Positions 1 through 42,935 of a DNA stretch of 64,000 nt are shown here, piece by piece. The translations under genes and the position numbers were made by a program. The stretch covers positions 435,998-499,997 of the forward strand of contig QPGO01000015.1 in NCBI GenBank assembly GCA_008632985.1, in the 5' to 3' direction. Position 1 is the first letter of the stretch, and each line of letters begins with the position of its first letter. A model generated the notes under the pieces. The model saw nothing but the letters and a program-made list of their open reading frames with translations, made no database searches and was not told the DNA's origin. This stretch comes from Psammoneis japonica (lineage: Eukaryota).

Positions 1-620
1 CCCTTGCTCAGCTTAGAATCTGCAAAAAATGTTGCAAAGCAAAACAGACTTCTTCATTCTTGCATCAATGGTGAAGGAGGAAAATTTCCATGTGCGTGAC
101 TTCCAACAATGTGATCTCACGAAATGCACCACCATCTTTGTGGTGGAGAATGAGAAAAAGCACAGCAAGCACAAACCAGGGAAGCTCTGTTGGGATGACC
201 TGGGTGCAGAAGATTTCTGCACCAACTCAACCAATGTGCACCACAGTTGGCTGTCAGTTGTGCCCTTCTGCCGCAACCACTTTTTGACATTGTCGTCTCT
301 CTCTTGCTCTCCTCACACCTGGCAGGCCTGCCTGGAGCTCAGCACTGGACCTCAATTTTTGACCCTCTCTTCTGTTTCCTTCTCTGTGGGGATCTCATCA
401 TCAACATCACAAGATTTAACCAATGCTGGAGTGTTCTTGCCTGGTGGAGGGCCCTCACACTCCAGCGGAGGTTGTGAACATTGTGGTGTGATCTGAGCCT
501 GCTGGTGCTGCTGGGTGCTGTGAGCAGCTTTTGGGATGGAGTGCACACTTGTTGTTCTGGGTTGGTGGCAGTGGCAAAGCTTCAGTTGTGCCAGTGCTTA
601 AAAAAGAGTGGGTTTCGGCA
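1..620 (-). mobile_element. Degenerate non-LTR (LINE-like) retrotransposon fragment, N-terminal part of the reverse transcriptase, truncated by the window edge
   Basis: Minus-strand frameshifted pieces read DVDDEIPTEKE..., KKWL...LWCTLVELVQ, KDGGAFREITLLEV, WKFSSFTIDARMKKSVLLCNIFCRF*AEQG. These follow the order of LINE RT motifs (PT.EE; W..LV.LVQ; K..G.FRgI.LLE..WK...IID.R...hgFR..rG). The region is TpA- and CpG-depleted. Confidence 0.55.
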
Positions 621-1153
621 CTTTATCACACACTGGACTGTCTTGCCAAACACGTCCCTGACATGATCAGCGCACGACAACAACGCACATGATGCAATTC
701 TTCAAGATTGACTTTGTCGATTGACTGATTCAACTCACTCAATTTTGCCGCGGGTTGTTGAAAACAAGAGAGAACAAGTGGTGCGCTGCTCTCTAGCTGC
801 CGTTAGAGGCACCGGCGCATGGAGAGAGTAGAGAGAGAGAGAAGGTGCCGCACTGCTGCTGTGTGGTGCAGTGCGACGAGCCCAAAGATCATGTTGTCGT
901 GGGAACAAGTGGGAAGACGAATGACTCATTATCGTGATCGCGCGCTGAGCGAGCGAGCGCCGCGTTGGCGGCTGCCGGCTGATGCACGTTTCTCACTCTC
1001 TTCATTCGTCATCACCCCGACTGAGTTGGAAACATTGCTCCCATCATTAAAATGTCAAACGTTTAATGGGATACAATTCATGAAACTCGGAAACATCGTA
1101 TAGTTCTTAGCGAGTGAGTTCGAGAGGAAAAGAGGAACGCAAAAACGCGCCAA

Positions 1154-1945: not shown

Positions 1946-3791
1946 TTAGTCATCCTCTTCACCATCGTATTCGTCTAGCCCAATGCCTTCCCCATCCTGT
2001 CGAAAGTCAGCGATTGGCCAGAACTTCCCTTCGCGGACCTCCCGGCGTTGATCAGCATTCAAACGCTCGTAGTAGAACCTGTGCACCTGCTGGTCTGAAC
2101 CTCGATCTAACATAGCCTGCCAAACATTGTTCATATTAGCGGGGGAACCGTAGTTTGCAGTTATAGCCACCGTGTCGTCCATATTGAAGACGGAATGAAT
2201 ATAGTTGTGTGGCAGATAAATGGTCTCTCCAGGTTCTTGTAGAACAGTGATGGGCTGCCTGTCCCGACCGTTGTCTGTATAGACTGTACGACCGGCGTTA
2301 ACACCTACACTCGCATACCAATCGATCAGCGAATCACCTTCAGAACATTCATCCTTACACGTCACCGTCCTTGGGTGTTCAACAACCGAAGGATAAAGAA
2401 CCCACTTAAGAAGAGAGGCACGGAAGAGAGAAACAAGAAAAGGAATCGCAAAAGTCAGGCCAGATGTCGTTCGAGGAGCAACAATGAGAAGCAATAAGGT
2501 CATTCAAAAGAAGGTGCAGGAGGAAGAATTAAAATCAAAGGTGCAACAGCTTCGCCAGACCAACAGCTGCAGAACCGAAATGAAGACAACTCCATCGCTT
2601 GTCACTCACCCACTTGTGACCTCGGATAAGGGAGTTCCAGGCATCCGTACCGAAGGGATCACGGTGTGGCTTCGTGCCTGAGTACCTTGGCCCAAGGACA
2701 AACCAGCGACGTGATCCATACTCTGGTGGGAAGTCCCTTGTGAACAGATCTTTGCCCTCAAAGGGAAATGGAGTTTCATAGTCTTTCTCTATCTCCTTCC
2801 CCCACTCACTATCTAGTTGGTCAAATATATAGAATGGTTTGTTGCCTATCATTGCTTCCTTGATCTTCGCCCAGGGAAATTCGTGATCATATTCATTATA
2901 ATCATCCGGCGTTCTCGCTCGCCAGGTCGTGTCATTGTCGAATCGATGCGCAAGCTCCTCCATACTCCATCGGGTCTGGGCTGGCCAGTTGTTTGAACAG
3001 TTGGTAAGCATTACTGGCGTACGGGTCTTCTCGTACTTCAAGTAAAACTCTTCTTTAGATATGTTGCAGGATATCCGAGGCAGGCTATCTTGCTTCTGGA
3101 TGTCTTCTATCGACGGCAGGATTGGCTCGTCTGTTGTTTCGTTTGTTTCCTTGCGGGAACAACAGCTCACGTAAGGCTCTTCCTCAAACTCGTCGGTCCA
3201 AAAGAATTGGTCAGAATTGACCAGATGTTCGTTGTCGGGATCATTAATTACATAAGTCCTCCAAGAATCTACTTCATCATCCCACAATTCGTTAATGGAA
3301 CCAACAAAATGTATGTTGTCGAAACCGGAAATGGAGATTGAGTGAGTGGCAAAGGAGAAAGCTACACAACGTGAATCCTTCAAACAAATCTCCTTTGCCT
3401 TTGAGATCGTCAAGGTTGACTTGTCAAACTCAATATCGTCAAGAAGCCTCCCCGAGATAACGCGACCCGGTTGAAAGACAAAATCTTTGTTGCTGATATA
3501 TGTCTCCCAGCCTTCGTGCGAATGGCTTTCGGGAAAAGGAATATCATTAGACAGGAAAGCATAAGTGAATCCTTCGATTCCAGTGAAGTTACCCCCAACA
3601 TCGTCTATAAATTCCGCCGGACGGTAGATGAATCCTGCACAAGCTACCGTGTCATCACACAGCTTAACGGCGGATTCTACAGAATCCGCTTTGTAGTGTT
3701 CGCTTATGAATTCTTTCCGTGCCGCAATGCCCAAAAAGTGGCACCACACCACTATCGCCGATGCCGAAGAGATCCTAATGGAGCCAAGCAT
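1946..3791 (-). CDS. JmjC-domain 2-oxoglutarate/Fe(II) oxygenase (JMJD6/JMJD8-like) with signal-peptide-like N-terminus; 2 exons, intron ~2609-2405
   Basis: Motifs RTPVMLTNC..WPA..RWS, RWFVLGPRYSGTKPHRDP..TDAWN.LI.GHKW|WVLYP and QEPGETIYLPHNYIHSVFN...VAITANY, with the HxD...H iron ligands intact. Confidence 0.85.
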
Positions 3792-4042
3792 GTTGTTCAC
3801 TTGGATGTGAGGAGAGAAGGAATGATTTCTGTGAATCGAGAACACAGCCTATTGTCGAGAATTTTTTTGTGTCAGGAGAGAAGAGATGATATTATTTGTA
3901 AATCGAGAACACAGCCAATCGTCGATACAGTATCGAGGCGTTGTGTGCCTTCAGGCATCTATCCAAATACATACCACAACGCATTACACCACGAATTAAT
4001 TTGTGAGGAAAGAAATGTCTGCTGGTCATTTTAGGGCCCCAG

Positions 4043-4215
4043 TGCAAGCTCAAGCTGAAACTGATGTCAAAACAAAGAAGTGAGTAGACCGAAGAGAGGG
4101 CGGGGAGCCTACAGTAAGCGTTAGCGAACGCTGGCGAGCCTCTCTCAAACGGCTACGTTAATCTAATATCCAAAATTTATACTATATATCAGAAGCGTGC
4201 GAGTGAGTTGCTGCA
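4043..4215 (-). repeat. 3' LTR of the Gypsy element (173 bp)
   Basis: Direct repeat of 9333-9496, differing by two small indels (9 bp in total) and one substitution; adjacent to the PPT. Confidence 0.95.
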
Positions 4216-4338
4216 CTCTTCCCTTCCATGATCCGAAAGAACTAGAGGATCATGCAAAGGGCCAAAAACCAAGGACCAAAACCAAAAGTAAAGACAATAA
4301 CAGGAGGAAACCCAGATGTTGGGAAGAAAACCCCCTGA

Positions 4339-7300
4339 TCAACCGCGAAAAGGAATCAGGCGCCGAATGTCAAGGTGCTCAACCACATGAGGAGCTCGAC
4401 GAACCGAGAGCGTGCCACTTGCATGCACTTGAACAATGGGACAAGGACCATGAGCACGAGGCTCGAGTCTGGATGGCTCAATGTACTTGATTAGAACTTG
4501 ATCACCCACTTGACAATCGCAGGATCTTCTCTTGGCATCAGCTCGTCGCAAGTTGTCGTTGATCAGCGTCTGGCGATGGCCTTGAATCGTCAACAAATCC
4601 GCCAGCACTGGGACATCCAAAATCATGTCACGTCCGAACACCACAGCACCTGGTGAAATCTGTAAGGAACGGGAAACAGCACAGCAGGTTGCATGCATTG
4701 CAGTTGCCAAAGCATCGTCCACGAGGCCAGCTGCACCCTGAAGGTTTTGAGGTGGATTAGAAGCAATGAGCGCGCGCAATGCATTGCCGACAGTCTGGTG
4801 CATTCATTCACAAATAGCGTTGGCTTGAGGGTTGTATGAAGCAGTCAGCACATCATCAATTCCAGCTCGTTGCAATGGCATCTGAAACTCACACCCGGTG
4901 AACTCGCCGCTGTCATCGTGGATGCATCGATTCGGTCTGGGACAGCGTGCAAGCCAGCAGTTTTCGAATTGGTTGGCAACATGTCGAGCAGTTTTATTCT
5001 CAATTCTCACCAGTTCAACAAGATTGGAGACAGGATCAATGCAGGTCAACGCCCGAAACTCAATCTCTCCATTTGGTGCTTTGATTTTCCACGGGCCAAT
5101 GAGGTCAACCGCCACTTCCGACCAGGGAGTCAATGGAGCTTCTCGTTCGGGCAGCTCTCCATGGCCAGGACCCAAAGTTTTGTTACGTTGGCAATCAGCA
5201 CAAGAACATTCATCACACATGCGACGCAACCCAGGGTGATGACAATGAGCCTGGATTGTTTCACGCATGCGCTGGCTTCCGGCATGGCCAAGGACGAGAT
5301 GATGCCACTGTAAAATGTTGGGCACAAGCGCAGTCGGCAAACAGATTTTCCACTGTCCTGGAGGATCATTTGGTTGCATGCGATGACACACAAGCAGTTG
5401 ATTATTCACACATTCCATGAGGAAACGATCAGGGTGAGCAATGCGCATCTGGTTCAATTGTTGGTCCTCGAACTGGCACTCTTGAATCCGTTGTAACGTC
5501 ATTGGATTTTGCATCTCCTGCATCGCAGGGTAATTCAAAAAGGAATCGAACAGTTCCGGCTCATCAACAAAGAAAGAGAAGAAGTGTGAGTGGCCTTCAT
5601 TTTCAATGTTGCGACAACACTTGAATCGGCACGCGCCGAGCTCCAAGTCCTCATCGCGGAAATCCTCGACTTCGGATGGTTCCTCACTCGGCACCAACTT
5701 CGAATCGAGCGGAGCAAAATCAACAACAGTTCCTTTGCCCGGAGCCAAGCTCTTCCCTTCAGAGGGAGGATCCATGTGAGGCAAACGAGAAAAACAATCA
5801 GCCAAGACATTCAAGCGGCCTTCGACACAATGGAATTGAGGGGCAAAGTCTTCCAGAAAGAGGCGCCAACGGAGCACACGTTGTGAATTTAAGGTGCGAA
5901 AGGCAAGGTTCTTGTGGTCGGTGAATGCATGCAAGTCACCGCCAAGGAGCATCGTTCGGAATTCACGGAAGCACATGACAATGGCCAAGAGTTCTTTTTC
6001 GATCGTCGAGTGGTTTTGTTGCTGCCGCGTTCAGCTTTCGAGACCAGCATGCAATGGGTTTTCCGTCTTGTACAATCACTGTGCCCATTTGGCAATCACT
6101 GGCATCGGCACAGATGTGGAAGGGTTTGTCATGATTCGGATGCGCCATCAACGTCTCGGCCGCTAGCACTGCTTTCATCTCTTCGAACGCCGCCTGACAA
6201 TCTGCTGTCCACGTCCATGAGCCTTTGCCTGTGAGATCTGCCAAGGGTTTCAACAAGTGAGAACGCCGAGGCCACATGTTGCGACAGTGTGTCACAGCAC
6301 CAAGAAATGAACGAAGCTGCTTGACATTTTCCGGAGGTTGCACTCGCAGAACAGCTTCCACTTTCTTCTTCCAGGGACGAATTCCAGTCGGAGTCAGCCA
6401 ATGCCCAAGGAAATCCGTTTCCTGCACACACCATTCACATTTCAAAGGGTTCACTTTAAATCCAGCTTCTTTCAAACGTTGCAGGAGTTTGTCGAGACGA
6501 GCAAGGTGAACATCAAAATTGTCATCAAATTGAGCGAGATCATCAATGTGCGCGTCAACGTCCAAGTCATGTGCAGTTTTCTCAATCAAGTGTTGCGCAA
6601 CATCCGGAGCCGGCTTCAAACCCATTGCCAGACGGCAGCATCGATGCTTTCCAAAGGGTGTCACGATTGTCGTCAGATCTTTGGAATTGTCATCCAGTTC
6701 AAACGTACAGTGCATCATTGAGAGATCCAACTTTGTAAGAAATTTGCACCCGGCTCTCTTTTGCAACACATCTTGGATGATCGGCAAGGGACAAACCTTG
6801 CGCTTGAGGGCTTTGTTGAGTTCCCGAAAATCGCTGAGCCACCGCACTCGACCATCTTTCTTCGGCCGAATAAAGGCACCTGCAGCCCATTCCGAAGTTC
6901 CGGCTTCTTCAAGAACGCCAAGAGCCACTGAGTGATCCAATTCTCGCTTGAAAGTCTCGAGATCATTGTGCGGCACCGCATGCGCTCGAGAATGGTGCGG
7001 AACGGCGTCAGGATCAACATCAAGGTGAACTTTTTCGCCAGCACACTTGCCAAGGGTGCCATCAAAAAGAGCAGTGTGTTTTTCCAACACGAGACACAAT
7101 TTCTCTTGCTGTTCGGCAGTGGGATGCTTCTGAGCTGAAGCTGCTTCAGAAGGGGACGTCTCCTCATGCTTTGCATCGAGGATGTGGCCATCCCACACAT
7201 CATCATCATTAGCTGGCTCATCAGTCAAATCATCGAGCCATTGCTGGATGCTAGTCCGCTGATTCCTCGGCTTCATCGCAATGCTTGAACCGAGCCACTT

Positions 7301-7831
7301 GACAATTCCGTGTTCGAAATCCAATGTGACACCCGCTCTCGCCAAGAAGTCCTGTCCAAGGATCATGTCACATTGGCAGGGTGAGTCAAACACATGCGCA
7401 TGCATGCCATCAACATGTTTGGTCTCATCAAATTCAGGGAGCACCAAGTCCTGCAGTCGAACATAACGAGTTGATTCGAATTCTCCTGCCATTGTCCCAA
7501 ACTTTGCACGAATCGGTCCTGTCTCTTCCAATGCTGGAACCGCTCCAACCGGCAACACCCGAGCATGAATCATTGAATGGGTTCCACCGGAATCAAGCAA
7601 CACCCGCATCACGCGCTTGCTTTCCTCATCTTGAATGAATCGTGCCACGAATGAGGTTGCAGGGACCACATTTAATGGTTTGGTTGGTTTTGTTTTTGGA
7701 GTTGGTGCAGCGCACTCAAGTCCCACATCGTCTTCGTCATTCACAGTGCAATTTCCGAAATCGTCATCATCAAATGAATCAGCAGCATGTGCATGACAAT
7801 CATCAATGCAGTCAGCACAATCATCAAACAT
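4339..7831 (-). pseudogene. Gypsy pol (protease, RT, RNase H, integrase), frameshifted, with Tyr codons converted to His/Cys
   Basis: Protease LLDSGG. RT DFRELN, TPFGK, (Y>H)IDD, FLGH. RNase H DASD, SRKL, TDHKNL, NVLADCFSR. Integrase HLVLGH..CADC, DLIGPW, NPQANAICE. GP(Y>C) motif. Confidence 0.9.
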
Positions 7832-7882
7832 GTGAGAATCAGGAGCGACACACTCGGACGACAGCTCTTCAAGCTCATTGGG

Positions 7883-9097
7883 TCAGCATCGACTGCGTCC
7901 CGAGAAGCGACCACCAGGTCGAAAACTTCCCGTTCCACCTCGATGCTCTCAAGGCCCTCCTGTCGAATCAAGATGATGGCTTTCAGCAGACCAATCATTG
8001 GGAGGAGCCGTTCTGGCCGGATTGCCGTAACCGCCGCCATCTGCATTGGTTCGGGTGTCGTTTTGACATTGCATGTAAGAGCCACCATCATCATGATGCT
8101 CGCCGCTGTTGCCGCCAGAGTCACAGTTTCCGCGACCACCGTAGTTTCCTCGGCCACCACCATGACCTTGACAGCCACGGCCTTGCCAACCACAACCTTG
8201 TGCTCCGCCATGACCACGACCTCCGCCTCGACCGCCACCTCGACTGCCACGGCCACCACATCCGCGACCTCCACGATCAGTTCTTGGACGGCAGTTGTTA
8301 GAATCGGGATTCATGACGCAATCTTTCCACTTGTGATTGTGAGCATGCAAAGGACATTGAGATTCTGGGTCAACACGATTGCCTTTCTTCTTGGTGGAGC
8401 CGCCACCTTTCGACTGTCTGTCTTTGCGCTTCTTCGAAGTCTTCTTGTTCCCATCTGCAAATGATTTCTCCGTGCTCATGCACGTGACAATTTCCGCTGA
8501 CGTGTCATTTCCAATCGTGCATCCTGCTCTTGTGCACATCTCGCGCCACGACAAAGGGAAGCCATCGAAGATCATCTTCTTCTTCTGGTTCTGAGTGACA
8601 ACTGGATTATTTCCCGGCAACTTGTTTGTGTGTCGCACCAAGGTCTCCATTCGATCCGCGTGTGCCTGCACTTCAACATCGTGTGGCTTTTTAAGAGAGA
8701 GCAAGTGTTCAATCATCGTGTCACGCGCTTCAGTTTCACAATGTGACAAATAAAAACGAGCCAATTCTTGGTCAAAACGAGCCACCGTCTTCTGCGCATT
8801 CGGAATCGCCATGGTGAGATTGGACCATTTGTCTTCAGCGGTGTCTGTCAACACTTCCTCGAAATCATCAAACAGTTCTTTGCCTGCAGTGAATTCAAGT
8901 TTTGCAGCCAGTTTACGAAAATGATCTTCCATGAACAACAACACTTCAATGCCATTGGTTCCATCAAAACAAGGGCACTTCTTCGCACGCGTGCTACCAT
9001 CATCATGCGATTGAGTCAATTTTGCAAGTTCCAAATCCGAATGAGCAAATTTCACAGCATGCAAAATGCACGGTTCTTTAAGGCTCTCGCGATTACT
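7883..9097 (-). pseudogene. Gypsy gag with zinc-knuckle-like motif and Gly/Arg-rich tail
   Basis: ORF 7949..9121 contains CPLHAHNHKWKDC and a GRGG-rich tract. In-frame TGA codons at 7949-7951 and 7883-7885. Confidence 0.8.
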
Positions 9098-9332
9098 CAT
9101 CAGGCCAAGTTGGTCCTCCAAGAAACTGCTTCAAGCACTCTACCTTCGACTCGAGTTGTGCAACCCGAATCGCCAAATCCTGTTCGCGTTGTTTTCGTGT
9201 CTCCTTTTGCCGTTTTTGTTCCAAAGCCCAACTCGCTGCCTTCGCTCTCAATGTTCTTTTCTCTTGTTTTGTAAGCCCATTGGTTGTATCGTTGTTTCTC
9301 ATTCAGCTCTTTACAATCGACTGTAATTACAG

Positions 9333-9496
9333 TGCAAGCTCAAGCTGAAACTGATGTCAAAACAAAGAAGTGAGTAGACCGAAGAGAGGGGAGCCTAAGC
9401 GTTAGCGAACGCTGGCGAGCCTCTCTCAAACGGCTACGTTAATCTAATATCCAAAATTAATACTATATATCAGAAGCGTGCGAGTGAGTTGCTGCA
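9333..9496 (-). repeat. 5' LTR of the Gypsy element (164 bp)
   Basis: Direct repeat of 4043-4215; contains a TATA-like tract (tactatatat). Confidence 0.95.
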
Positions 9497-10137
9497 CCCA
9501 GAGTCATTGTGACTTCACCTTTCACTCTCCGCCAAATGTCCGATATCCACAAGCTTAGGCTAGTGTGCTTCACCGCCACAAATTTCACGTACGTCGTACG
9601 TGACGTTTCGTTTCGTTCGTTCGTTTTGGTTCATTATTCTAAATTCCTTCTACTGTATGTAGTTACAATACCGGTACGCTTGTTTTGGTTTTTCTTGAGA
9701 CCATAAATTGCTTTTTAGGTATCGTCATTGATCGTGCAAAATCCTTCTAATTCGAATGTGAAAGTCCATCGTAAATGCGGTACTTGTACAGTAGAAGCAG
9801 TCACAATCGGGCGTCTGTTAATACCTGGTGTCTTGTTGATCAGAAAACCTTCTTTGACGCATATCAAGTCTAACCGTAACTTTCTAGGTCTTGCCCGTCT
9901 ACTTAGGAGCAAGGGCCTCCGAAAAACTGGATCACCCATATTCCAGTGCCATCGATCTCTTCTTGGCAAAATTCAACACATAATCCGCCATGCCGGCTGG
10001 ATAATGAAGAAAAGGAAGCACATTTGCTGTATGAACAAAGTCACATTTGCACAACTAAGATGTACTCTGCCGTATGGCAGAAACATTTGTCAACACTAGA
10101 CTACAGCATTTAAAATAATGAGAGAGCAATCGACTCT

Positions 10138-13026: not shown

Positions 13027-13349
13027 ACGCAGGTTTCTGGAGGGTCGAAGGTGGCTACGATTGCGAAAGTACTGTAATTCTTCTAGTCTCCTAATATCTG
13101 CTTCGGGAGTAGCATGTAACAACTCATGAGCGAACCCATTCCATAGCTAGTATCTTTGGCGCCTGGCTCCTCGTTGTTAAGCATGTTGTCCAAAATGTGT
13201 GTAAGTTTGGGTGTGGGGATAGATGCAGCAACCTTAGCATGAACTCCTACGGCAAAATATGCGTAATTCTTCTAAGCCAGTTGCCATCAGAGCGCCAACG
13301 AACTCGCGCGTAGTCAACGGCCCCGTCCTCCAAAGTAGCCAGTACATGG

Positions 13350-15808
13350 TCAAGAATCGATTGTGTGAGATCTTGATTTCGAACAAGGCGCCTTCCTTGA
13401 GGCCGCACAAGGCGCAATTAGACTTTTGATGCCAACCGTTCCTTCCGTCTTTGAGTGATTCAAGAGAATCTGCTGGATCCCTGGTCGGTCTCGACAACCA
13501 CTGTGGATGTGAGGCCGGCATGAAAAGAAGGCCTGAACAACTAGCCAGTCTCCATTTTCACACCCGTGTTGATGACCCAGACCCAGAAAAATCCCTTCTT
13601 GTAACTTGCAAGACTTCTGACAGTTTTGAGCACAGACACATGATTGGTGGTTAAAAGCATCTGCCTCAAAAACTTTCATGCTGACGCACCCAAGAGTTTG
13701 AAGCGCACTTGATTGAATCTGAATGGGCCAAAACATGGAGCACACTGTCATGCCCCAATCAAAGATTGCAACATTCATTCCTTTCTGGTGGAGTGCAGAG
13801 CATGCAGCCACCACCACAACAAGGCCAGAAACACCATCCCCTGCATGCAATTGTGACTTTTGCATTGAGTTCAACCTTCAAAACTGTTTTGCTTGGGGTG
13901 TGACCTCACTTTTCTTAACTGCCTGTGCTGTCCACCCACTTTCTGCACTTCATCTGCTGTCTCTGGTGTTCTCAAGGGTCTTTGGCCTCACAGAAGCAAG
14001 CTTCCACAACCAAACTCACTTCTACATCAAAACATGATGAAGTGCTCAAGAGGACAAAACAAAAGCAACAGCGAGTCCAGTTGCCCTGCCACCATTCCAA
14101 GGAAACAAGCAAGCATCTGCTCAGTTGTTGGTGAACACAGATCCTGGAGACTTCTGTCTAATCATTCCACCCACCACACAAAAATGGTGTGTGCTGGCAG
14201 CAGGGGACGAGTGTCATGCCAAAAAGTGAAAAGTTCTTTCATGGCTTGCACACATGCTTCCACATCACAACACATCTTTGCTTCAATCACCAACCATCTG
14301 TTTGTCATCAATGCACATTTTGAACACTGTCCTTTGCACAAGTGCAGAGACTTCAACCAGCTCACCCAGCAACCATGAAAACACTCTCATCCCTCTGATC
14401 ATTGCCTTTCTTGGCTTTGGGACAATCTGCTTTTGCTCCTGTGGCACCCTGCTTTCAACATTTCCATTTGCTCTTCTTTTTGCAAACAACATGCCAATTT
14501 CTTGATCATCTTCATGGAGCTTTTAATTTGCTTTCCTTTGGATTTCTGCTCCCAACACATGTCAAAAATTGCAAAGCATTTTTGTGGCCATCTCGGGGCT
14601 TTTCATTCTCTGAGGTTGAACACACAGCCAAATTTCTTCTTGCAAACACCATTCAACAACACGGCGGGGCTCGACACTTGTTTTTTTTTTCAATGTCAGC
14701 AGCCCTGTCAGGCTCAAAGACATGCTGGCACTCCTTTTGGCCAGCCTCGTCATTGGCACAACTCCTCCACAAATCCTTTTCACAACCTCTGCCAAGCCTG
14801 TGAATTGCTTGCAGCAAGCCAACAGGTCCCAATTGTCCCCTTGCCTGCAAGGCAATGATGCCCTCCATTTCTTTGAAGCTTGAGGTGGTCTGGGCTTCTT
14901 TTTGTGCACAACATCTAATTTCTTTTTCAAGACACTGCAGCTCTTCTCCAAGCTTTCAACTCTGTTCAACGCAGACTTGTCACACCAGCTTGTCACAACA
15001 GTGAACACCTTGGCTTTGCAGTCAGAGCACCTTGGCTCATTTTTCACACACTGATTGCACCACTTCTTGCCCCAGATTGCCCCCTCTCTTTCCTCTTTCA
15101 CCACCAGTCTTGGGATGCTCAGGTTCAGAAAATGCCGTTTTTTGTGAAAGCAACACCAGTTTCCATGTTGTTGCTCTGTGCACACACACTTGACAACATG
15201 CTCAGCTGTCTTCTTGGCAGTGGTCTCATCACACTCATTGGCCCCAGCTCTGCCAGCTGCAATGGCTTGCTTGTGCACCTTCACAGCTGCTCTGTTGCCT
15301 CGCCAACTTGCTGTTTTTCATCTTGACTTGCTCACTTCTTTGAGAGCAGTGGCATTGTTTCCAAAGGAGATGACAAGCATCTCTTTCCTGTTGCTCATTC
15401 TTCAAACAGAGCATCAAATCTTCCCCAGCCACTCATTTGGCCAGAGCAACAAATCTCTGCAATGACTTTGTTGCTTCAGCCAGCTCAAAGGCTCCACAGT
15501 CATTGATGCACTGACAAAATTTTAGACTCCTCTTGACTTCCTGGCCAGCTCTTTTCAGCATGCACCAGCTTTTGGACAATGCACAGCCCCTGGAAACTCC
15601 TTCTGTCTGTTGAATCCACCACAAATGCAGCATGCTCTGACAGCCACACTGGCTGAGGGTTGCTGCAAAAAGCAAGAATTTTTTCATGGCTCACACATGC
15701 TTTCACATCAAACCACACATTTGCTTCAAAATTGCTGGCTGTCCCTCCACATTGTCAATTTACATTTTCCAATGTCAGCCATGTGCATGACATTGTGTGC
15801 TTTTCTCT
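13350..15808. mobile_element. Old degenerate repeat-derived sequence, family unassigned; left part of the domain interrupted by Copia
   Basis: Nearly devoid of both TpA and CpG, with many Cys/His-rich overlapping ORFs. Continues into 22890+ when the Copia element is removed. Confidence 0.5.
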
Positions 15809-16084
15809 TGACAGAAATTGAAGGCAAGTGGCAAGAATTCAAACAATGACTCCTTGCTGCTGTCTAAACAGCAGATGAGTCTCCGCTCAGAGACCGTCAC
15901 AGGAGCCAAAAGATGTGCAAGTCGGCACAATCGGGCTGCTGTTGTCATTCTTGTGAGCCTTGTGGCTCAAAAGCAAACTACATCGCGCGCGAACGCGCGG
16001 AACTAAAGCACACAAAACTGTGCATGGCAAACTAAACAGCGTGGGACATTTTGCGCGCACCCAAATCCTGTTCAAATCCTGTCA
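15809..16084 (-). repeat. 3' LTR of the Copia element
   Basis: Ungapped direct repeat of 22614-22889 (offset 6805). Confidence 0.95.
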
Positions 16085-19000
16085 CTCCCCAGTTTGCTTG
16101 AAGAGTCACAGAAACAGATTCGACTTCAGATGGAATGAAGTTCCAGAACATGAGGGGGCGGAGAAGGTCCCAGACTTGGGAGCAACCCCAATGCTTGCTG
16201 AGAATGTCAGCAGGGTTGCAGGAGCCTTCGATGAAGTGGAGCTCAAGGCAACCAGAGGCAATTGCCTCACGCACACGGTGGAATGACAGTGTGGTGTGTC
16301 GCTTGTGTAACTTGGAGTGCGGGATGGTGGCACTGTCTACAACCGACTTGTTGTCACTGAACATGCAACTGATGTCACGGATCGGGACGCTGAGGCAGCG
16401 CAGGGTGATGCGCAGGTCAACAATCTGCTCGACACAAGTCCTTGCGGCAACAAATTCAGACCCGCAGGTCGCAGTCTCCACGGTGGCTTGCTTCTTGGAG
16501 AACCAATCAGCTGGGAATTTGTTGAGGAAGTGGAGCATTCCCATGACAGAGCGTCCGGTGAGCATGCAATGGCACAAGTTTGCATGGACGCAGTGGGTGG
16601 CAGTGACAAACTTGCCAAGGGGTGGTGGAGCGTCCTTCAGGATCATCTCTTCTGCTTCGCCACACACGGAATGCATCCATTCACAGGCCGGAGCAGGGAG
16701 ATCCGAACAGTCGGGCTCTTCTGTGGGAACGCGGAGAGTGCCGTGTCGCATCTTGGAGAGGTGCCCACAGACGCGTTTGGCACGATCCAAGTGGCCTTGA
16801 CGGGGTGCAGCTCGGAAGCTAGAGAGTGACATGACGGCCGTGGCAATGTCAATTCGACCAAGGGACACTGCCCATTGGAGTGAACCAACAAGAGACTGGA
16901 ACTGTTGAATGCCATCGGGCCCCAGCAGTTCGGAAGTGTCCAGTTCGGGGTGGTCACCCTTCTCCAGAGGTGACAGGGCGTTGGTGGCAGGCTTCTCCCC
17001 AAACAGTCATGTGTGGCTGTTGACCATGCGTTCAATGCACTTGCGCGGAGACAGGCACAAGGTGCCATCAGGATCCCGGGAAAAGTCGCAGCCCAGATGG
17101 AACTCAATCGGTCCCGCACCCTTGAGCTTGAACTTGTGCTTTTCTGTGAGAGCATCGATGAAAGATTGAGGGTCCTTCATGGCAATGGCGAGGTCATCCA
17201 CACAAACGGCAATGCATTCGCAGTGGTCGCTGTTCCTGCGCATCCAAATGTCGGGTTCGGCGCGGCAGGGGAAGAAACCTTCAGCTCGCAGGCAGTCGGT
17301 GAAGCGCTCGTGCCAGCGGAGGCCGGAGCTGCGCAGTCCATGCAGGGCCTTGTGGATGACAAGAATGTGGCCTTCGAGTTTGACAAATTCGGGTCCAGCC
17401 ACAATGCACAGCTTCTCTTTGGTGGTGGCTTCAAGGCAGGCATTGCCAATGTCGGTGGCCCATGTCTCCAACTCGTTGAGTTCGGCCAGGAAAATCATCA
17501 GTCGAAGGCCACGGAGGGAGACTGCTCCGGAGTGGACACCATCGATGGGCACATCCGTGAGGTGCCCATTGGCTGCGAGTCGTGCCTTGTGGCGAACGTC
17601 GTGCACGAGGTGCACTCGGATCTTCTTGTGTCCCGCAGGAGGAGTGGAAGACTTGGAGGGCCCGCAGTCATGGAAGACTTTGTGTTCATCGAGTTGGTCC
17701 ATCTCGAGATTAGTTGCGTCTCCCCATTTGCGGTTGCCGTTGCGTTCGTCTGGTGACATGGCGTGTTTGTAGTTCCGGGGAACTTCGCATCCGCACTTGC
17801 AGCGAGGTGCAGTGCGGAAGGAGCGAAGCTTGGCTTGGTTGGCCATGTGGAACAGCTTCTTCTGGTGCCTCGCGATGGTGCGGAACCGCTTCCAGCCATC
17901 AGTGTCGAGAAGTCCGTTCTCTCGTGCACAGATGGCGCAGGTGACAGGGTCGTCCTTGGCGATGATGGCAAGAGGCTCGGACGTGATCTCCCCACTTTCC
18001 CATTCAAGCACAATGTTGTAGCTTGAGCCTTTCCAGGTTGGGTCATGAGGCTTCAGAGGTCCTTCGTGTGACACAATGCGTCGAAATTTCCAAACAGCAG
18101 TGTCTTTGTCTTCTTGCTCAATGTGATTCATGATGTTGTTGCAGGCCAGGACTTCCTCACATTCGTCGTTGTTGACAGAGCAGACGAACTCAGTGAGCTC
18201 GGGGTTGCCGTTCACTTTCCATTCGTGGTCTTCGACGGCCTTGACGATGCATGCTCTGTGGCGTTGTCCGTCCTCTTGTGGCTGCATGAGGAAGGTGCGT
18301 CCGATGATGTCTTGCGGATCGAAAACTGGCATCTTGGGTGTCCTGATCTCCCCATTGGGTGAATCGACGGGGTTGTCGTCATGGTGAGATTTGATGATGG
18401 GTTCAGGTGGCTCCCCATCAGGAGGATCAAGATGCAGGTTTCGAGTGGCAGGATCGGTGGCAGCGGATCGTACGTTGGACCGGCAGAGGATCTTCTGAGT
18501 CTCGTCAGAGAGCATCTTGAAGGTCATCTGGTGGCCGACGTGCTCAGCAATGCCAACAAAGCGTCCACGCAACTCACGGGATTCGGACGGCCAATCGGAG
18601 TCATCGAGGTGGAAGCACATGGGTTCCCACCAGTGAAAGCGAAGCAATGGGCTGATGTCCGGGGTGGAGCCAGTGAGAGTCTCGAGGGGCGTGCGCCAGT
18701 GGAGACGTGGGGACGCTGCATGGTTGAGTGTGAAGCACACACACATGAGTGCCAGCAGCCATGTGTGGGCAGGCGAACCGAAACGGTCCATGACAGTGTT
18801 TGCCACGCGCTTCACGGTCTGGTGTCGATGTTTGGCAAAGTTTTGGTGTTGCTGGTGAGGCTCACTTTGCCAGCTGGAGACAAAGAGGGCTCATAGGATC
18901 CCGAGCACCTTGTTGCTGATCTCAACTTGAGCACGGTTGCCAATGAGTTTGGATGGAGCACCACGCTCACGGATCTGATCCTCGAGTGTGTTGACAAACT

Positions 19001-21699
19001 CTTTGTCCATTTTGGTGCCGCAGACGTCAGTGACGGCAGACTTGGTGCCAACAAACAGTTGGGCGCTGGTGCAACCAGAGTCGACGGCCGGGGTGTCGGC
19101 ACAAATGGTGTCAGTGGCGATGGGCTCATTGCGGCGGTGCACATTAAGGGCGGGGTTGGGCGATTTGTGGGCCTTCTTAAGGTGGGCACCGGCGGGCATG
19201 CGGGCGCACTGCATGGTGCAGTCGAAAGTGCGACGAACCGCATCGGCAGGTTGGAAGCCAAAGCAAGACCGAAGAGACTCGCAGGGGGGGGTCCTTGGGC
19301 TGCACAGTGCGCTCCGGGGGCAGAACGTCGTCGTCCTTGGGGTCAATCGCGTGTGGATGACACTTGTGGAACACGTCGTCATTCGGAATGAGGTGGTCAT
19401 CAAGGGCGGACGCGTGATCGGCAGACAAGGAGGCGGACATGATGGCCTTGTTGACAACGACACGGTGACGGCAGTTGCTGCATTCATAAAACAGGTTGGC
19501 AGTGGGATCGTCCTGCAGGTCAGAGATCGCGTCGCACCACTGGTCGTCGTCAGTGACAGAGTGATCAAGGACGGAAGGATCCCATGTGTCATCACCGGCA
19601 AGGATGACATGGGGCAGGGTGTCCCATTCGGTGTCAGTGCAGGGTCGCATGGCAACATGAGGCAGGCCGCCCTTGATGTCAATTTGGATGACACAGCCAT
19701 CAGGGGTGGTGATGCGTTGCAAGCCGTTGGGCACCTTGACAGAGCGATCGTTGACATCATGTTTGTGCCATTCGAGCTGGCCACAGGAATGAATGGTCTT
19801 GCCCTTTCCCGTGCATGTGCACTGATGGAGGATGGCGATGACGGGACCACGCTGTGTCTCAATGACGGCACCAGCGGTGACAATGGGGATGCCCACCAAT
19901 TGATGGTTGTCAATGCCCTGAACGTCGACTTGGCGAGAGGTGCATGCAATGACGTGAACATCGTTGCCAGCAATGCCGCCGTTGGCTCCACGATCAACCA
20001 GAGCACCAGTGCATGTGGAGCAATGAGCGGAGGCAGAGCAAATGACATTGTGGTTGTCAACGCGGCGGCAAGTGCGGCTGTTGAGTTCCATGTCATCTGT
20101 GGGAGCAGGCAAGGTAGAGGGAGCAGCGGATGGGCCCGGTCGACTGGCGTTGGGGGCTTGGTGAGGAGACAACAGGCGTTGCAGATCACCGGGTGGCAGT
20201 GGCTTGTGCTTGGTGAGGTGCGCCAGAATGGGATTGTCTGAAGTGGCACCCACATTTGGAGCGGGGTCACCAGAGTCAGCAGGAATCGTGTTGGACAAGT
20301 TGACATCACCGTCACTCCCAAGTCGTTGGTCGTGAAGGTTGACCGCAACGGACTCATGGCAGTTGCTGGCTCGCGGGTTGCGGGGAGGCGGACGAGAATG
20401 CTCAAGGATGATCGCCTTAGAGGAATGGGGCAACGAATCCCAAATCCCAAATCCGTTGGTGGTCAGGAGGGAGACGTTTCCATTGGTCACCGGCGAGGCT
20501 GGGACCGCGGGTGCAGGCAGCGTCAGCCTGAAGGACGTCAATGTCGCTGTCGATGTCATAGAACACATCATCGGATGGTTCCTCAGAGTGGACGTCGTGT
20601 GCACACATGGCGCGTCGGGGAGCTCGAGGTGTCGTCTTGGGTTGAAACGTGCTGTCGCATTGAGCCGCCGTGGAGAGGAGCAAGCCACAACATTGATCGC
20701 ATGTGAGGCTCTTGCCACTCTGCGTGCGATGCTGATCAGCTTGGTTCTTGACGGCGCGGAGTTCCTCGACAGGATGCACGGCATTCTCGAGCACTTCTGT
20801 CCTTCAGAGAAGTGGTCACTGGCCGGGATGAGTGCCTCGTGCTTGCGCAACTGGTCCTGCCAATGAAGGATGAACCCGTGGGTCGGACCTTTCCAAGTGC
20901 CATCACCAAGGCGTGCGGTGGTGAGGTGCGTGAGCAAGGTGGAGGACTCGACAGATGCGCGGGTGGAGGCAAGCGCGCACTCGGACAAGGCGCGGCAGAT
21001 GGTCTGGGTGTCAGAAGACCCCACATTTTCGCGAATGAGAGCCTTGCCCTTGTCGGTGAGAAGGATGTGTTCAAAGACGGCGAACATGTGCTTTTGCTGT
21101 TCAGCAAAGAGCAGTTTGTCTTCGGGGCTGGTCGGTTTGTACGACGAGTCTAGAATGCACTTGACGTCTTGGGCACGGGCTTGTGCCACAAGTGAGGTGT
21201 GCCAAGTGTGCCATTGCTTGTCGGATTTGAGAGCCGTGAAAGCAGTGGGGTCACGCTTGATGCCTCGCTTGAAGTCTTGCACCGGGTCGCGTGCCTTGGT
21301 CGGGTTGGTGACATGCGGAGGTGCGAGAGGTGAGCTGCCGACGGACACAGAAGACATGCAGTCGGGACTGAGGCGGCAGGCAAGGAACTCCTCATGCGTG
21401 AACAATGAGGAGTCATTGGCAACATCAAGGCCTTCGTGTGCTTTGACAATGCACAGACTAACTGGAGCTGCCAACATGTTCTCACAACCTCGGGGCAATG
21501 GGATCACATTGGTGCCGTTGTCGCACTCAAGCGAGTCGATTTGGGAAGGTGTGAACGTGAACAGTTCTTGGTGCGAGTCCATGTCGTCATGGGTCAAAGC
21601 CAAATGAAGAGGGCTTCCAGCACCTTGGGCAAGTGCAGTTCCAACAACGTGCTCGAAACCATCGGTTTGTTGCTGACAAGTGAGAACCATGGCAGACAA
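16085..21699 (-). pseudogene. Copia gag-pol polyprotein, broken by several frameshifts, with Tyr codons converted to His/Cys
   Basis: gag FKRGIKRD. Protease ALVDRGANGG. Integrase IATDT..DTPAVDSG, FVNTLEDQIRERGAP. RT HKARLAANGH, DIGNA(Y>C)LEA, KAL(Y>H)GLRSSG, (Y>C)VDDL. RNase H SKKQATVETAT(Y>C)GSEF, DNKSVV, NPADILSK. Confidence 0.9.
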
Positions 21700-22613
21700 A
21701 AGCGGTGTCAGGACAAGCGATTCTTGTTGGGACGCGGAGGTGGACTTGAAACTTGAGTGGGAACAGACTTGACTTGAAATGGACTTGACTTGAAATCTTG
21801 AACCATCTTAAAATCAGAAGTCGCCGGGTTGTGCCACCCCGTTCATTGTTGAGTGCTGAACTTCCCATCCGGTCCGCAGAGTTGTGCCGGCAGGCCAGCG
21901 GCGCTTTGGATTGCTTGCGAGTGGAGCAGCGGGTTGCAAACCCCTGCAGGCAAGCTGACTGGAGGTGGACAAGACCCCAAAACCATTTCTCATTTTACAT
22001 TGGTTGGATTTCCCAATTGGGCTGGCCAGTTGACGCAGGCGCCAGGCGCTGTGGACGAACGAACAAACGTGGGAAAACACCCTCGCCCCAACGCAGGCTG
22101 CAATCACGGCTGCTTGCTCTCACAGTCGTCCTCGTGGACCTGGCAGAACTGTGGAGCACCAGAAGTCCGGGGCAGATCAGGTGCAATGGACTCGGTGTGC
22201 TTGTAAAGTGGCAGCAAAGCCGCAGTCCAAAGAGTGGGTGCAAGTTCTTGGCTGTGAAGATGTGGACACATGTGTGTCTTCAGCGACGAAGATCCTTGAA
22301 TGTGTGGGGTTCTTGACCGTCAACCGTTGAATGGGCACATGAAGGGATGAGGATCAAGGACAGACTTGGACATGACCGTTGCATGCATGTCTTCAGCGAC
22401 AAAAGGCAGCACAATCAATCCAGATGTCCAGCGGCAAGGAGACTTGACGGTGACGTTAACTTCCTGCCGATGCCTGGCATTGAATGCGCGTAGACTTGCC
22501 GATGTACGTAGAACATGTGCGGAGGTCCACGCAGAATTGAAAAGCGTCGTCAGTAAATCAACGACGATGATGGCAGTTGCTCAATGGGTTGACAATGAGC
22601 AAGACTGTTAATC

Positions 22614-22889
22614 TGACAGAAATTGAAGGCAAATGGCAAGAATTCAAACAATGACTCCTTGCTGCTGTCTAAACAGCAGATGAGTCTCCGCTCAGAGACC
22701 GTCACAGGAGCCAAAAGACGTGCAAGTTGGTGTAATCGGGCTGCTGTCATCATTCTTGTGAGCCTTGTGGCTCGAAAGCAAACTACATCGCGCGCGAACG
22801 CGCGGAACTAAAGCACACAAAACTGTGCGCGGCAAACTGAACAGCGCGCGACATTTCGCGCGCACCTAAATCCTGTTCAAATCCTGTCA
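22614..22889 (-). repeat. 5' LTR of the Copia element
   Basis: Ungapped direct repeat of 15809-16084. Confidence 0.95.
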
Positions 22890-22894
22890 TCTCT

Positions 22895-23032
22895 GGTCAT
22901 CAAGCCAAGAGAAAGGGGGTTGCAAAGGTGCACTGCAGGGCATGCCCATCCCCATGCATGACATTGTGGGCTTTTCTCTGGTCATCAAGCCAAGTGAAAG
23001 GGGGTTGCAAAGGTGCACTGCAGGGCATGCCC
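22895..23032. repeat. 85-bp tandem duplication at the Copia target site
   Basis: ggtcatcaagccaag.gaaagggggttgcaaaggtgcactgcagggcatgccc occurs at 22895 and 22980. The start of the first unit (catgacattgtg.gcttttctct) lies left of the element at ~15786-15808, which confirms the empty-site reconstruction. Confidence 0.85.
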
Positions 23033-25170
23033 ACTTTGAAGCAGGCTGGTTTCAGTTGTTTGCTGGGTTGTTGCCGCCACCATTGCATTGGAAAGTTGCA
23101 TGTTCTTGTGCACATTGACCAGAATCCCATAGATTCCCTGCCACCACCTTGGCTGTCAGCACTCCAATGACATGGCACAGTGCAAGCGACTCCAGTCCAT
23201 TGATGCAACATGTGGACGAGATGATCTGCCAGCACACACGCAATGTGCACAGCCGGACATGGACTCATGGTGTTGGCATGATGAAAACAGTCACTGGCAG
23301 GTGAAGCAATTGGGATGTGGGACTGGGCTTGGAATCGCCAGTGCCAAGCAATTGGTTCCCTTTTCACTGTGCACAGACCATGCTGCCAACTCGGAATGCT
23401 GCAAGCATTGATTGCGAACACGCCCATGTCATCGGAGGCAGAACCAACAGGAAAAAATCAACATCTGCACTCATGAGGGAAAAGTGACATGCTTCCCCAC
23501 ACGTGACATTTGACAAGAAGAAATGGATGAAAAATTGAAATTCGAAATTGAGACTTCACAAGCAGAAAAATGATGGTGGGCGAGCATTGTCACCCGGAGA
23601 GATCCACTGAGGGAAAGAAATGTTCAAACAGGCAGGTGGGTGACCAAGAAGGGCATCAGCACTGCCTTGTCAAGCACTCCACAATGTGCCTGAGAGAGAC
23701 CCAAGCAGTTGCAGAGACAAGCCATGAAGGCATTGGATTGCCATCTGAGCAGCCACACTGACATTGACAATGCTGGCAAGCACTGTTGCTCAAGGGAGAT
23801 CCATGATGAGCACATTGTGGACACAAACAGACAGAGAAACAGTTGACCAAAGAGCGGCATTGGTGCCGCTTTGCCAAGTGCTCTGCAATGTCCTGAGAGA
23901 GGCTCAAGGAGTTGAGAAGACGACATGAGCAGCCATCAAGCTCGCTGAGCTTTGATCAACTTGTGGAGCTCAAAAGGTGAATTCCCAGTGTTGTACGTTG
24001 CTCCCTCTGGATCCAGCACCTCACGCTTTGGCTGTAAGATCTTCAAAATGACAATTCTGCAGCAGGGCACCAGGCATCAAGATGACACAATCATCAAGAG
24101 CTTTAGCAGCCTCATGGGTTTGAGAGCACAGCTGGTGCAAAGGGAATGTTTGGATGGGGGTGGCCCATCAAGGTGGACAGAAAGCCATGTTGCAACCACA
24201 CACAAGATCTCTTGTGCTGCTCCCTCTGTGCTGCAGGACTGGGAACAATGAAGGCACCCACATCGGGAGCAGCAGCACCGGGTGTGTCCTCAACAGGATG
24301 ACAACAGAACTCAGTCCAGACTGGTTCCTCCTTGGATGTGGGGAGATCATCATCATCAGACAAGGGATGTGTTGATTGCATCAGGAAGAAATGGATGCTG
24401 TGTGGATCACATTGATCCAGGACAACTGGGCAGTGTTCCTCAAGCAGGACAAGGCACTGTGGCACAGCAGACTGCTGAAAGAACAAAATGGCATGAGAGC
24501 AAGCTTGGAATGTGCATGTGGAGAAATGGAGTCCTCCGGAAGCATTGAGCTTGTTCTCTGCCACTGAACAAGTGCACTCATCAATGTCACATTCCTGATC
24601 CCACTGGCAAAGCCACAGCAATGCCAATGTCAACAGGGTTGACCTCTGCCATGTCAGAACACACATGATTCAGGAGCGGACTGCTGTCAGAGCAATTGAG
24701 TGCATGAACCCTTTGGCAAAACAGTGGTGAATCAGCTGTCTGTTCCGGCCTTGCTCAGTCATTCACAGTTGACCAATTTGGGAGAGACTGGGAGACAATC
24801 TTTCTCCAATTCCTGTGCTCATCCATTGAATGAAGACAAGAATGAAGTTGAAGTTTTGTCCCAAGTGATGGGCCCCTTTCCACCACCATTCATCATTGTG
24901 ATGATGCAAGTTGTGAGGATGTTCAAGAGAACTCAAAACGTGGGTGTGAATTTTGCTGCTTGTTCCAGACCTTTAAGGTCTAAGTGAGTGTGCAAAGATT
25001 GGTGTTGGCCAGACAGAGTGGCAATTCCGACAGGGCATGTGCAGGCATGTGGAGCTGAACGCTGCACATGACAGAGGAAAAATGTTGGCCATGCTGAGGA
25101 AGCAGCAATGACCATGAGCCGCATGATGGCGTAAAAAGGACCTGTCATGGGCAACAAAGTGGGAGAGATG

Positions 25171-25562
25171 GATGGACTGGCCAAGAGATCCATGCTCATT
25201 TTGCCCGTTGGGGCTGAACAGCATCTTAGACCATGATCTGAGGATGTGCTCCTCATGGAAAGGCACCATTTGAGACAGTGTGGCAGAACAGTCAGAGTGC
25301 AAGATGATCCTCGGCCGCCAAAGCAGTCTCCACAATGAGTGGACCCAATCGGGATTTTAGAAACAGATGGACCAGCCAAGAGATCCACACTTGTTTTGCC
25401 CATGGGGACTCAGTGGTGCAGGACCATGATTGTGAGGATGTGCTTCTTATGAAGAAAGGCACCATTTGAGATGGTGTGGCAAAATGGGCCAGAGTGCGGT
25501 TCAATCCTCGGCCGCCGAAGTGGTCCCTGCAGTGCAGCAGACCCAATCGGGATTTGAGAACA
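25171..25562. repeat. Diverged ~195-bp tandem duplication
   Basis: Units start at 25171 and 25366 (gatggac..gccaagagatcca ... aaaggcaccatttgaga ... tcctcggccgcc ... gacccaatcgggattt). Confidence 0.8.
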
Positions 25563-42520: not shown

Positions 42521-42667
42521 ATGGAATTGGCAGCTGCTGCGACGGTTGTTGCAGTCGAACCCCCCTGCTCTTGACCACCACAAACAGTGGAGAGACTTGG
42601 GAAGCCTTTGAGAATGAGCCCAACAACTCAGGCAACCTCCAATGGGTTGCCTCCCCACTCTCTGCCT

Positions 42668-42935
42668 CTGCAGTCTTTCTGGATCTGGACACAGAAATTG
42701 GAGAAGACGGATGCAACGTAAGTGAACACATCAAAAACAAATGAAGCTCTTTTTGTGCATGCCTTTTTTGAAGAGTGTCACATGTGGTAAAGAACTTTTC
42801 ATGTGTGTGATTCTGAGAGCTGCAGGAACAAGCACCGCCTGCAGTCTTTCTGGGTCTGGACATGGAAATTGGAGAAGATGGATGTGTTGTCAGCGAATGC
42901 ATCAAAAACCAATGAACCTCTTTTTGCACATGCCT
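42668..42935. repeat. ~170-bp tandem duplication
   Basis: ctgcagtctttctgg.tctggaca...aaattggagaaga.ggatg occurs at ~42669 and ~42839. Confidence 0.75.

Follow-up and report, generated by a model that had tools for sequence, protein, structure and literature searches.

Repeat-induced point mutation (RIP), a genome defence of Neurospora and other fungi, kills the genes of mobile elements by transitions at one dinucleotide on both strands; it makes TpA from CpA, needs a duplication and a sexual phase, covers whole repeats including their long terminal repeats (LTRs), and leaks into the flanks. APOBEC3G deaminates cytosine with a strong strand bias, and its gradient along human immunodeficiency virus (HIV) is set by the time for which the DNA stays single-stranded. 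Non-autonomous LTR elements of the LARD (large retrotransposon derivative) and TRIM (terminal-repeat retrotransposon in miniature) type are mobilised in trans, and their bodies are deleted or consist of unrelated sequence. The first report of TpA-specific hypermutation in foreign DNA dates from 2026 and concerns a single chlorarachniophyte (10.64898/2026.01.13.699255). In mutation-accumulation lines of this alga, Bigelowiella natans, two integrated viral regions gained 231 mutations, of which 230 were A-to-G or T-to-C changes and fell on TpA without exception, and the rate was ~6e-7 per site per generation, ~1000 times the background (Mettrop et al., bioRxiv 10.64898/2026.01.13.699255). According to the main text of the same preprint, one target region is single-copy and transcriptionally silent, blocks poor in TpA and rich in CpA and TpG are enriched in transposon domains (TpA-poor genes show an excess of reverse transcriptase and DDE domains), and an ADAT2-like candidate is named. 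Here we describe a stretch of 64 000 nucleotides from the diatom Psammoneis japonica (contig QPGO01000015.1, positions 435 998 to 499 997; the window hereafter, numbered from its first base), in which a Ty3/Gypsy retrotransposon on the minus strand (4043–9496) has a body nearly free of TA between two LTRs that are rich in it.

The Gypsy element is the sole copy of its kind in the window, where a search for a second one found none. Its LTRs are direct repeats of the form TG...CA, and it lies between two copies of a short target-site duplication, CCCAG, read directly at 4038–4042 and again 3' of the right LTR at 9497–9501. These features, and the order of the pol domains on the minus strand (protease, reverse transcriptase (RT), RNase H, integrase; PF13650, PF00078, PF17919/PF17917, PF17921), place it in Ty3/Gypsy. 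The 3' LTR (4043–4215, minus strand, 173 bp) holds 13 TA, an observed/expected (obs/exp) ratio of 1.10, and the 5' LTR (9333–9496, minus strand, 164 bp) holds 12, a ratio of 1.03. Both were delimited by local alignment with each other and by composition, and contigs of a public short-read run (X1) span both flank–LTR junctions with 0 differences. The interior between them (4216–9332, minus strand, 5117 bp) holds 43 TA, a ratio of 0.13 (0.11 in its core, 4501–9232), with CA at 1.56, TG at 1.28 and CG at 0.87. The ratio of TA to CA+TG counts is 25:37 for the LTR pair and drops to 43:916 for the interior (Fisher's test, p=9.8e-16, odds ratio 14.4), so chance is rejected as the cause of the contrast (p=1e-15). 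A preliminary description of this stretch, made from its letters, had reported TA-rich LTRs around a nearly TA-free interior, and both observations hold. It had also reported LTRs differing by one substitution; there is indeed one, a T/A transversion, but two indels (4 and 5 bp) had been overlooked. The pair shows zero transitions and is 99.4% alike.

Every tyrosine codon contains TA. The Gypsy frames encode tyrosine at eight of 1598 residues, versus a mean of 3.6% in 120 homologues, and cysteine and histidine are raised. At the 25 conserved tyrosine columns (alignment columns with tyrosine in at least 60% of the homologues), the Gypsy pol reads 14 Cys, 11 His and no Tyr; the tyrosine of the YxDD motif of the RT is among those lost. 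Other conserved residues are mostly retained (e.g. 38 of 43 leucines and 20 of 21 glycines). Because all 25 conserved tyrosines are now Cys or His, the loss of TA is mutation and not codon choice, and a codon or composition preference, which would not have destroyed conserved tyrosines, is rejected as its cause. The frames of a Copia element elsewhere in the window show the same loss, with two tyrosines among 1474 residues. A change from Tyr to Cys is A to G on the sense strand (14 cases) and a change from Tyr to His is T to C (11 cases), so both strands were targeted about equally. The base before the codon predicts the strand: all five tyrosine codons preceded by T became Cys, and eight of the ten preceded by G became His. 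As far as end states can tell, the changes are confined to TpA and yield CpA or TpG.

The surviving TA show which sites are lost most easily. Our context survey covered the TA-poor parts of the window (1–825, 4216–9332, 13400–26240, 40026–45850 and 47540–49805; n=142 surviving TA). ATAT is found 0 times among these 142, ATAC three times and TTAA 29 times; in genic DNA, 108 of 1441 TA are ATAT, and TTAA is 4.6 times over-represented among the survivors relative to genic DNA. Measured against relatives, survival is 0 for ATAT and 0.01 for ATAC and rises up to 0.25 for TTAA, so that the ease of loss falls from TA followed by T, through C and G, to A. Each Gypsy LTR retains three ATAT, plus ATAC, CTAT and TTAT/TTAA. 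Since TA in these contexts is hardly ever retained elsewhere in the window, the Gypsy LTRs were not exposed to the mutator; protection of the LTR sites by their context was considered and is rejected, the LTR TA being in the most sensitive contexts of all.

For a baseline, related elements were collected from metagenomes by a scan with P0141, a tyrosine-poor relative discussed below. The 31 loci found have TA obs/exp ratios of 0.48–0.98 and none of them is depleted in TA; measured against this range, about five sixths of the TA of the Gypsy interior are gone. The only one of the 31 with an LTR pair (L012) has ratios of 0.86–0.90 in the LTRs and 0.75 in the interior.

The step from LTR to interior is sharp, with a few TA persisting close inside the ends: at 4243, 4289, 4298, 4484 and 4492 on the left, and at 9272, 9287, 9312, 9324 and 9328 on the right. 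Such persistence had been claimed for both ends, with positions that were one or two bases off. On the right it is real: the 5' leader and primer-binding zone (9270–9332, minus strand) has five TA in the 63 bp before the 5' LTR (p=3e-4). On the left, the five TA in the 285 bp inside the 3' LTR are a marginal excess (p=0.04), mostly in contexts that survive everywhere. Most TA close inside the element are GTAA, CTAA or CTAG, which commonly survive.

The Copia element provides a comparison with an older insertion. Its 3' LTR (15809–16084, minus strand, 276 bp, with the target-site duplication TCTCT) has a TA obs/exp ratio of 0.23, and its 5' leader and 5' LTR (22450–22889, minus strand; the LTR itself is 22614–22889) form TA islands in a TA-free block, with six TA in the 163 bp of the leader and a ratio of 0.30 in the LTR. 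The two LTRs are 94% alike and have raised CA and TG. The preliminary description had called these buried LTRs mutated, and they are, though less depleted of TA than the Copia interior, where the ratio is 0.08 and that of CG is 0.79 (LTRs versus interior, odds ratio 4.2, p=0.001; leader versus remainder, odds ratio 12.7, p=4e-5). Going inward from the 5' LTR, TA per 100 bp number 5, 1, 2, 1, 1 in Gypsy and 2, 4, 0, 0, 1 in Copia. The Copia element is nested in an older repeat that is without most of its TA (0.06–0.08) and CpG (0.12–0.30), and the whole 13-kb block has just three TA clusters (at least four TA within 200 bp), one in each Copia LTR and one in the 163-bp leader. It follows that sparing goes with the LTR and the leader and not with a position at an edge.

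The Copia LTRs also hold a record of changes made in the chromosome. They were identical at insertion and now show three differences of TA versus CA/TG, and hence TA mutations strike resident chromosomal DNA. Since insertion the pair has lost three of 12 TA site-copies and eight of 42 CpG site-copies, so that TA loss per site keeps a pace similar to CpG decay. The interiors of the two elements, in contrast, have lost 85–90% of their TA yet kept CG at 0.79–0.87. At the slow pace of the LTR pair alone, so large a loss of TA would have been accompanied by that of most CpG; a fast, TA-only mode has therefore acted on the bodies and not on the LTRs. The losses are unevenly shared between the two Copia LTRs (seven CpG and two TA from the 3' LTR, one CpG and one TA from the 5' LTR, i.e. 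nine versus two), and the two LTRs of one element may thus decay at different speeds.

Read evidence on the Gypsy family comes from the one public sample that contains the locus (run X1, which may be the source of the assembly itself), with contigs placed at a likeness of at least 80%. Depth is ~60–64 on the flanks and mostly 2000–3800 over the Gypsy interior, which corresponds to roughly 30–60 copy equivalents. Out of 2248 contigs placed, 475 are at least 99% alike to the window, 593 are 95–99% alike, 799 are 90–95% alike and 381 are lower, i.e. 1773 fall below 99%. The listed contig pieces have about single-copy depth (28–79) and 10–14% differences, and 340 of the 380 variable places are transitions; copies of the family have diverged independently, mainly by transitions. 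Sequence context was sorted for 40 listed places of the 380. Among these 40, the window has lost at 5325, 8986 and 9282 a TA that 98–100% of the other copies' depth retains, and retains at 4244, 7252, 9272 and 9287 a TA that is lost in 94–100% of the depth (at 9272 and 9287 the other copies read C; at 9282 they read A and the window G). Thirteen places are TG or CA in the window and CG in the others, and two are the reverse; five adjacent pairs are CA in the window and TG in the others, or the reverse, and eight places are other transitions. Because the window and the other copies differ at these TA sites, TA mutation must have continued after the copies diverged, and it reached to 28–60 bp from the LTRs. 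Within the LTRs, a single variant contig end was seen in which a TTA reads as TCA. The frameshifting base at 6023 (see below) is absent in 400.3 of a depth of 600.3 (four contigs), and about one third of the depth shares the base of the window.

Relatives outside this genome are more distant. No alignable sister copy was found in the public protein collection, in which the best pol identity is 55–65% (near and shorter lengths), and a scan of viral contigs for relatives found none. Among 240 related pol proteins from public data, however, six (P0141, P0246, P0273, P0315, P0330 and P0339, all from metagenomes) are nearly free of tyrosine (0–0.8%) and have raised cysteine and histidine. In one environmental family of relatives (82–87% identity), a tyrosine column that is C in one copy can be H or Y in another, and three of the seven doubly mutated columns are discordant. 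The signature is therefore present in other environmental elements and has struck copies independently. The tyrosine-poor metagenome elements are probably diatom elements.

Our preferred reading, to which we give a probability of about 40%, is that integrated mobile DNA is mutated in place, beginning 30–60 bp inside the LTRs. A DNA-level mutator of the diatom would turn TpA into CpA or TpG (A:T to G:C), working on both strands of mobile DNA that is already integrated. After the Gypsy insertion the element body would have been marked and then rapidly stripped of ~85% of its TA, well before the LTRs could be altered by ordinary mutation or CpG decay. The marked zone would start roughly 30–60 bp inside each LTR, so that mutation would be far slower in the LTRs and in the few tens of leader bases next to the 5' LTR, with no change yet in the young Gypsy and partial change in the older Copia; sparing would be a property of the LTR/leader unit and not of a position at the margin of a repeat block. 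Most of the interior TA loss would then postdate this Gypsy insertion, and a chromatin or guide signal may set the border of mutation. More specifically, we tentatively suggest that what directs the mutator is a signal extending over the element body and stopping at the LTRs, e.g. a guide RNA or an LTR-bounded domain of histone marks.

We rank mutation in place first because it needs only a kind of process that has been measured, and it accounts for a loss restricted to TA that left CpG in place, for LTRs that stayed clean, for the diversity among copies and for the recurrence of the pattern in the buried Copia. A fast TA-specific mode is further supported by the difference between old relics, which have lost both dinucleotides (TA 0.06–0.08, CG 0.12–0.30), and young bodies, which have lost TA only. 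Several observations weigh on the other side. We know of no mechanism that exempts an LTR in place, and the border signal is a guess. Some of the family data look inherited and not independent: the TA at 5325 and 8986 are kept in 98–100% of the other copies' depth although their contexts usually perish; the symmetric CTAG site at 7252 has uniformly become CA in 96% of the depth (eight contigs); and the frameshifting base shared by about one third of the depth at 6023 hints that dead copies have been copied. The spared zones (the LTRs, the primer-binding zone with the leader, and the tract beside the 3' LTR) are the parts that a trans-mobilised element needs in cis. Shared and private mutations were, moreover, judged from 40 of the 380 variable places in what may be the assembly's own sample, and the window has only two LTR elements.

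Some of these observations favour the main rival explanation, survivorship in a trans-mobilised lineage, the alternative offered in the preliminary description, which we consider possible but on balance unlikely. Here whole silenced copies or tracts would be mutated; a copy damaged in its LTRs, primer-binding zone, leader or polypurine tract could not be transcribed, packaged or primed, and one damaged only in its coding body would be re-copied by the proteins of an intact relative; over several rounds the body would lose its dispensable TA while the ends stay intact, and the present copy would be a recent insertion of a dead lineage. Its pol indeed cannot work (all 25 conserved tyrosines, that of YxDD included, are lost, and there are a frameshift and an in-frame stop), and nonetheless this dead copy has a perfect target-site duplication and LTRs that differ by one transversion and two indels. 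The coincidence of spared with cis-acting parts, the common base at 6023, the TA kept by other copies at 5325 and 8986 and the uniform outcome at 7252 are all as such a lineage would leave them. In addition, every one of the six TA sites present in the Copia LTR when it inserted lies in a better-surviving context (CTAA, GTAA or CTAC), which suggests that this LTR had met the mutator before its present insertion. Selection acting site by site, however, cannot keep 13 of 13 LTR TA while ~85% of the interior TA are lost, so that survivorship too requires some mechanical sparing, namely tract-wise mutation that misses the LTRs. Many rounds as silenced DNA should have erased CpG, whose obs/exp ratio is 0.87; a recent amplification of dead copies predicts near-identical copies, whereas most contigs differ by 5–14% at about single-copy depth; and hypermutated copies are presumably silenced, which disfavours their transcription.

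Editing during retrotransposition is doubtful. A packaged adenine deaminase would edit the genomic RNA and the single-stranded minus-strand cDNA, the LTR and leader would become double-stranded first and escape, and each insertion would arrive hypermutated with identical clean LTRs. The clean, near-identical LTRs beside a saturated body agree with this, as do a TA retention that is strongest just inside the 5' LTR and declines over 150–400 bp in both elements, and copies that look independently mutated. But the outcomes show no strand bias (14 versus 11), so that a single enzyme would need much the same activity on RNA as on cDNA, and the U3 and R-U5 parts of the genomic RNA should have been edited too. 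The TA changes made in place in the Copia LTR pair are not explained, nor are the repeats that lack a match to retroelement proteins and are equally poor in TA: Pfam matched none of 20 long reading frames from the other TA-poor domains. The one precedent that has been measured works on DNA already integrated.

Position in a chromatin domain, the cause proposed in the preliminary description, fares no better and we consider it improbable. In that account heterochromatin cores are mutated, and gene-side rims a few hundred bp wide are spared whatever their sequence. The Gypsy element does stand alone between genes with untouched zones in its outer ~200 bp on each side, the buried Copia LTRs are mutated, and three other domain edges in the window (~0.8, 40.0 and 45.8 kb) have 100–300 bp of intermediate TA density, although the true element ends there were not located. 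Against this, the buried Copia has TA islands at its LTRs and leader; on both gene sides, the 13-kb block stays TA-free as far as its border (zero TA in 25996–26240, which ends 130 bp from the frame of a violaxanthin de-epoxidase (VDE) gene, and one TA in 13344–13541); the supposed edge TA of Gypsy are mutated in other copies of the family; and the Gypsy border matches the LTR ends within 30–60 bp on both sides. The contrast between Gypsy and Copia is accounted for equally well by age (LTR identity of 99.4% versus 94%), since with only two LTR elements in the window position and age are confounded.

It is very improbable that polishing or gene conversion overwrote the LTRs with a family consensus, even in a family repeated ~30–60 times by depth, where polishing can mis-assign reads: the LTRs differ by two indels and a transversion, the interior retains at least 35 states that at least 92% of the other copies lack and so was not overwritten, the junction contigs are independent short-read assemblies, and Copia shows the same pattern.

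The remaining features of the Gypsy element, all on the minus strand, are as follows. A purine-rich stretch (on the sense strand) adjoins the 3' LTR at 4216–4227 and is taken for the polypurine tract from its position. The RNase H and integrase part of pol (4339–6030; PF17917, PF17921) has an in-frame TGA at 4804–4806 and an integrase zinc domain, and the integrase catalytic core (rve) was not detected by Pfam in this pol at E<0.001. The protease and RT part (5963–7882; PF13650, PF00078, PF17919) aligns with homologues at 55% identity (E=4e-205) and has His for the Tyr of YxDD. The two parts overlap at 5963–6030, where a one-base difference near 6023 shifts the frame inside RNase H. A putative gag frame (7949–9130), named by position, has no Pfam match. 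With its frameshift, its stop, the altered YxDD motif and 25 of 25 conserved tyrosines gone, this is not an autonomous copy. Directly after the 5' LTR, on the sense strand, Gypsy (9315–9332) and the unrelated Copia (22597–22613, minus strand) have a similar short motif, TAA..ACAGTC, that does not begin with TGG as tRNA primer-binding sites usually do; it may reflect a shared unusual primer.

The host genes in the window are of diatom type: the VDE frame (26371–27636) matches Ditylum, Helicotheca, Eucampia and Odontella at 70–81% identity, and further frames include COG4, an RlmN-like protein and CRAL-TRIO, among others. From the dinucleotide composition of the 64-kb window, genic stretches have TA obs/exp ratios of 0.54–0.61 and CG about 1, and five TA-poor domains stand out (1–825, 4251–9125, 13351–26250, 40026–45850 and 47526–49825), with TA obs/exp of 0.06–0.13, CA and TG of 1.3–2.2 and 4–10 TA per kb. 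Tyrosine makes up 2.4% of the residues in host reading frames versus 0.1–0.5% in the elements. Domain TA density, genic ratios and tyrosine shares agree in that mobile or foreign DNA is targeted and host genes are spared.

A few observations concern other repeats. In older unclassified repeats (13400–15808, 22894–26240, 44001–45000 and 48001–49000), TA is at 0.05–0.08, CpG at 0.05–0.30 and CA/TG up to 2.0–2.2; here the TA route and the CpG decay route end at the same two dinucleotides. A tandem array at 41637–42514 has units of 175–186 bp with a mutual identity of 72–83%; among three of its units there are 30 transitions, 10 transversions and seven sites with CA in one unit and TG in another, and these sites are not decisive for TA mutation, as the ancestral state could be TA or CG. 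An imperfect direct repeat (~55 bp, 80% identity) lies at 3806–3925, in intergenic DNA just upstream of the Gypsy insertion site.

To our knowledge, nothing is known of how the targets of a TpA mutator are chosen, and in the literature on diatom transposons we found no report of TpA loss. The present locus places the TpA signature in a diatom and on LTR retrotransposons, and shows that the mutator prefers certain neighbour bases (loss is easiest for TA before T, then C, G and A). A border at the LTR that recurs in two unrelated elements is a handle for telling apart chromatin, guide RNA and apparent survivorship. For those who work with such genomes, LTR identity no longer dates the element body, and protein-based transposon annotation will meet pol genes without tyrosine. 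If a signal does bound the mutated zone, the step between LTR and interior would be a base-resolution footprint of how deamination targets are chosen in an alga of the SAR (stramenopile, alveolate and Rhizaria) lineage, and the defence would destroy the proteins of retroelements yet leave dozens of promoter-competent LTRs beside genes.

Compared with known systems, the Gypsy element resembles LARD- and TRIM-type elements in its intact LTRs, primer-binding site and polypurine tract around a non-coding body and in its high copy number, but its body is a full-length gag-pol inactivated by one dinucleotide-specific process. Proviruses killed by APOBEC3G are likewise hypermutated with comparatively clean LTRs; here, in contrast, the changes are of adenine type and on both strands (14:11), without bias to one strand, and resident DNA is mutated too. 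RIP, too, inactivates the genes of mobile elements through dense transitions at a single dinucleotide of either strand, but it creates TpA, which is destroyed here (depleted, with CpA and TpG raised), its C-to-T change at CpA is not what is found, and the whole duplicated unit is not covered, as 0 of 25 LTR TA are lost though the LTRs belong to the repeated unit. That the process is unlike RIP, as the preliminary description maintained, is borne out by the opposite direction and the sharp borders.

The closest system, judged from the main text of the preprint, is that of B. natans. The organisms differ (a chlorarachniophyte, in Rhizaria, versus a diatom), as do the targets, which were a giant-virus insert and a virophage insert where they were measured and are LTR retrotransposons here. 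Depletion is mild there (rho 0.45) and near saturation here (0.06–0.13), and the evidence there is observed mutations and a rate, versus the end states of one sequence here, plus three TA differences in the Copia LTR pair. The terms 'LTR', 'retrotransposon', 'edge', 'boundar' and 'diatom' are absent from the text of the preprint (10.64898/2026.01.13.699255), whose supplements, outside this check, may hold data on region borders; sparing of element ends and a neighbour-base preference are not described in that text. What the two systems have in common is that changes on either strand are limited to TpA and produce CpA or TpG, that foreign integrated DNA is targeted and host genes are not, and that TpA is depleted block by block with a gain of CpA and TpG.

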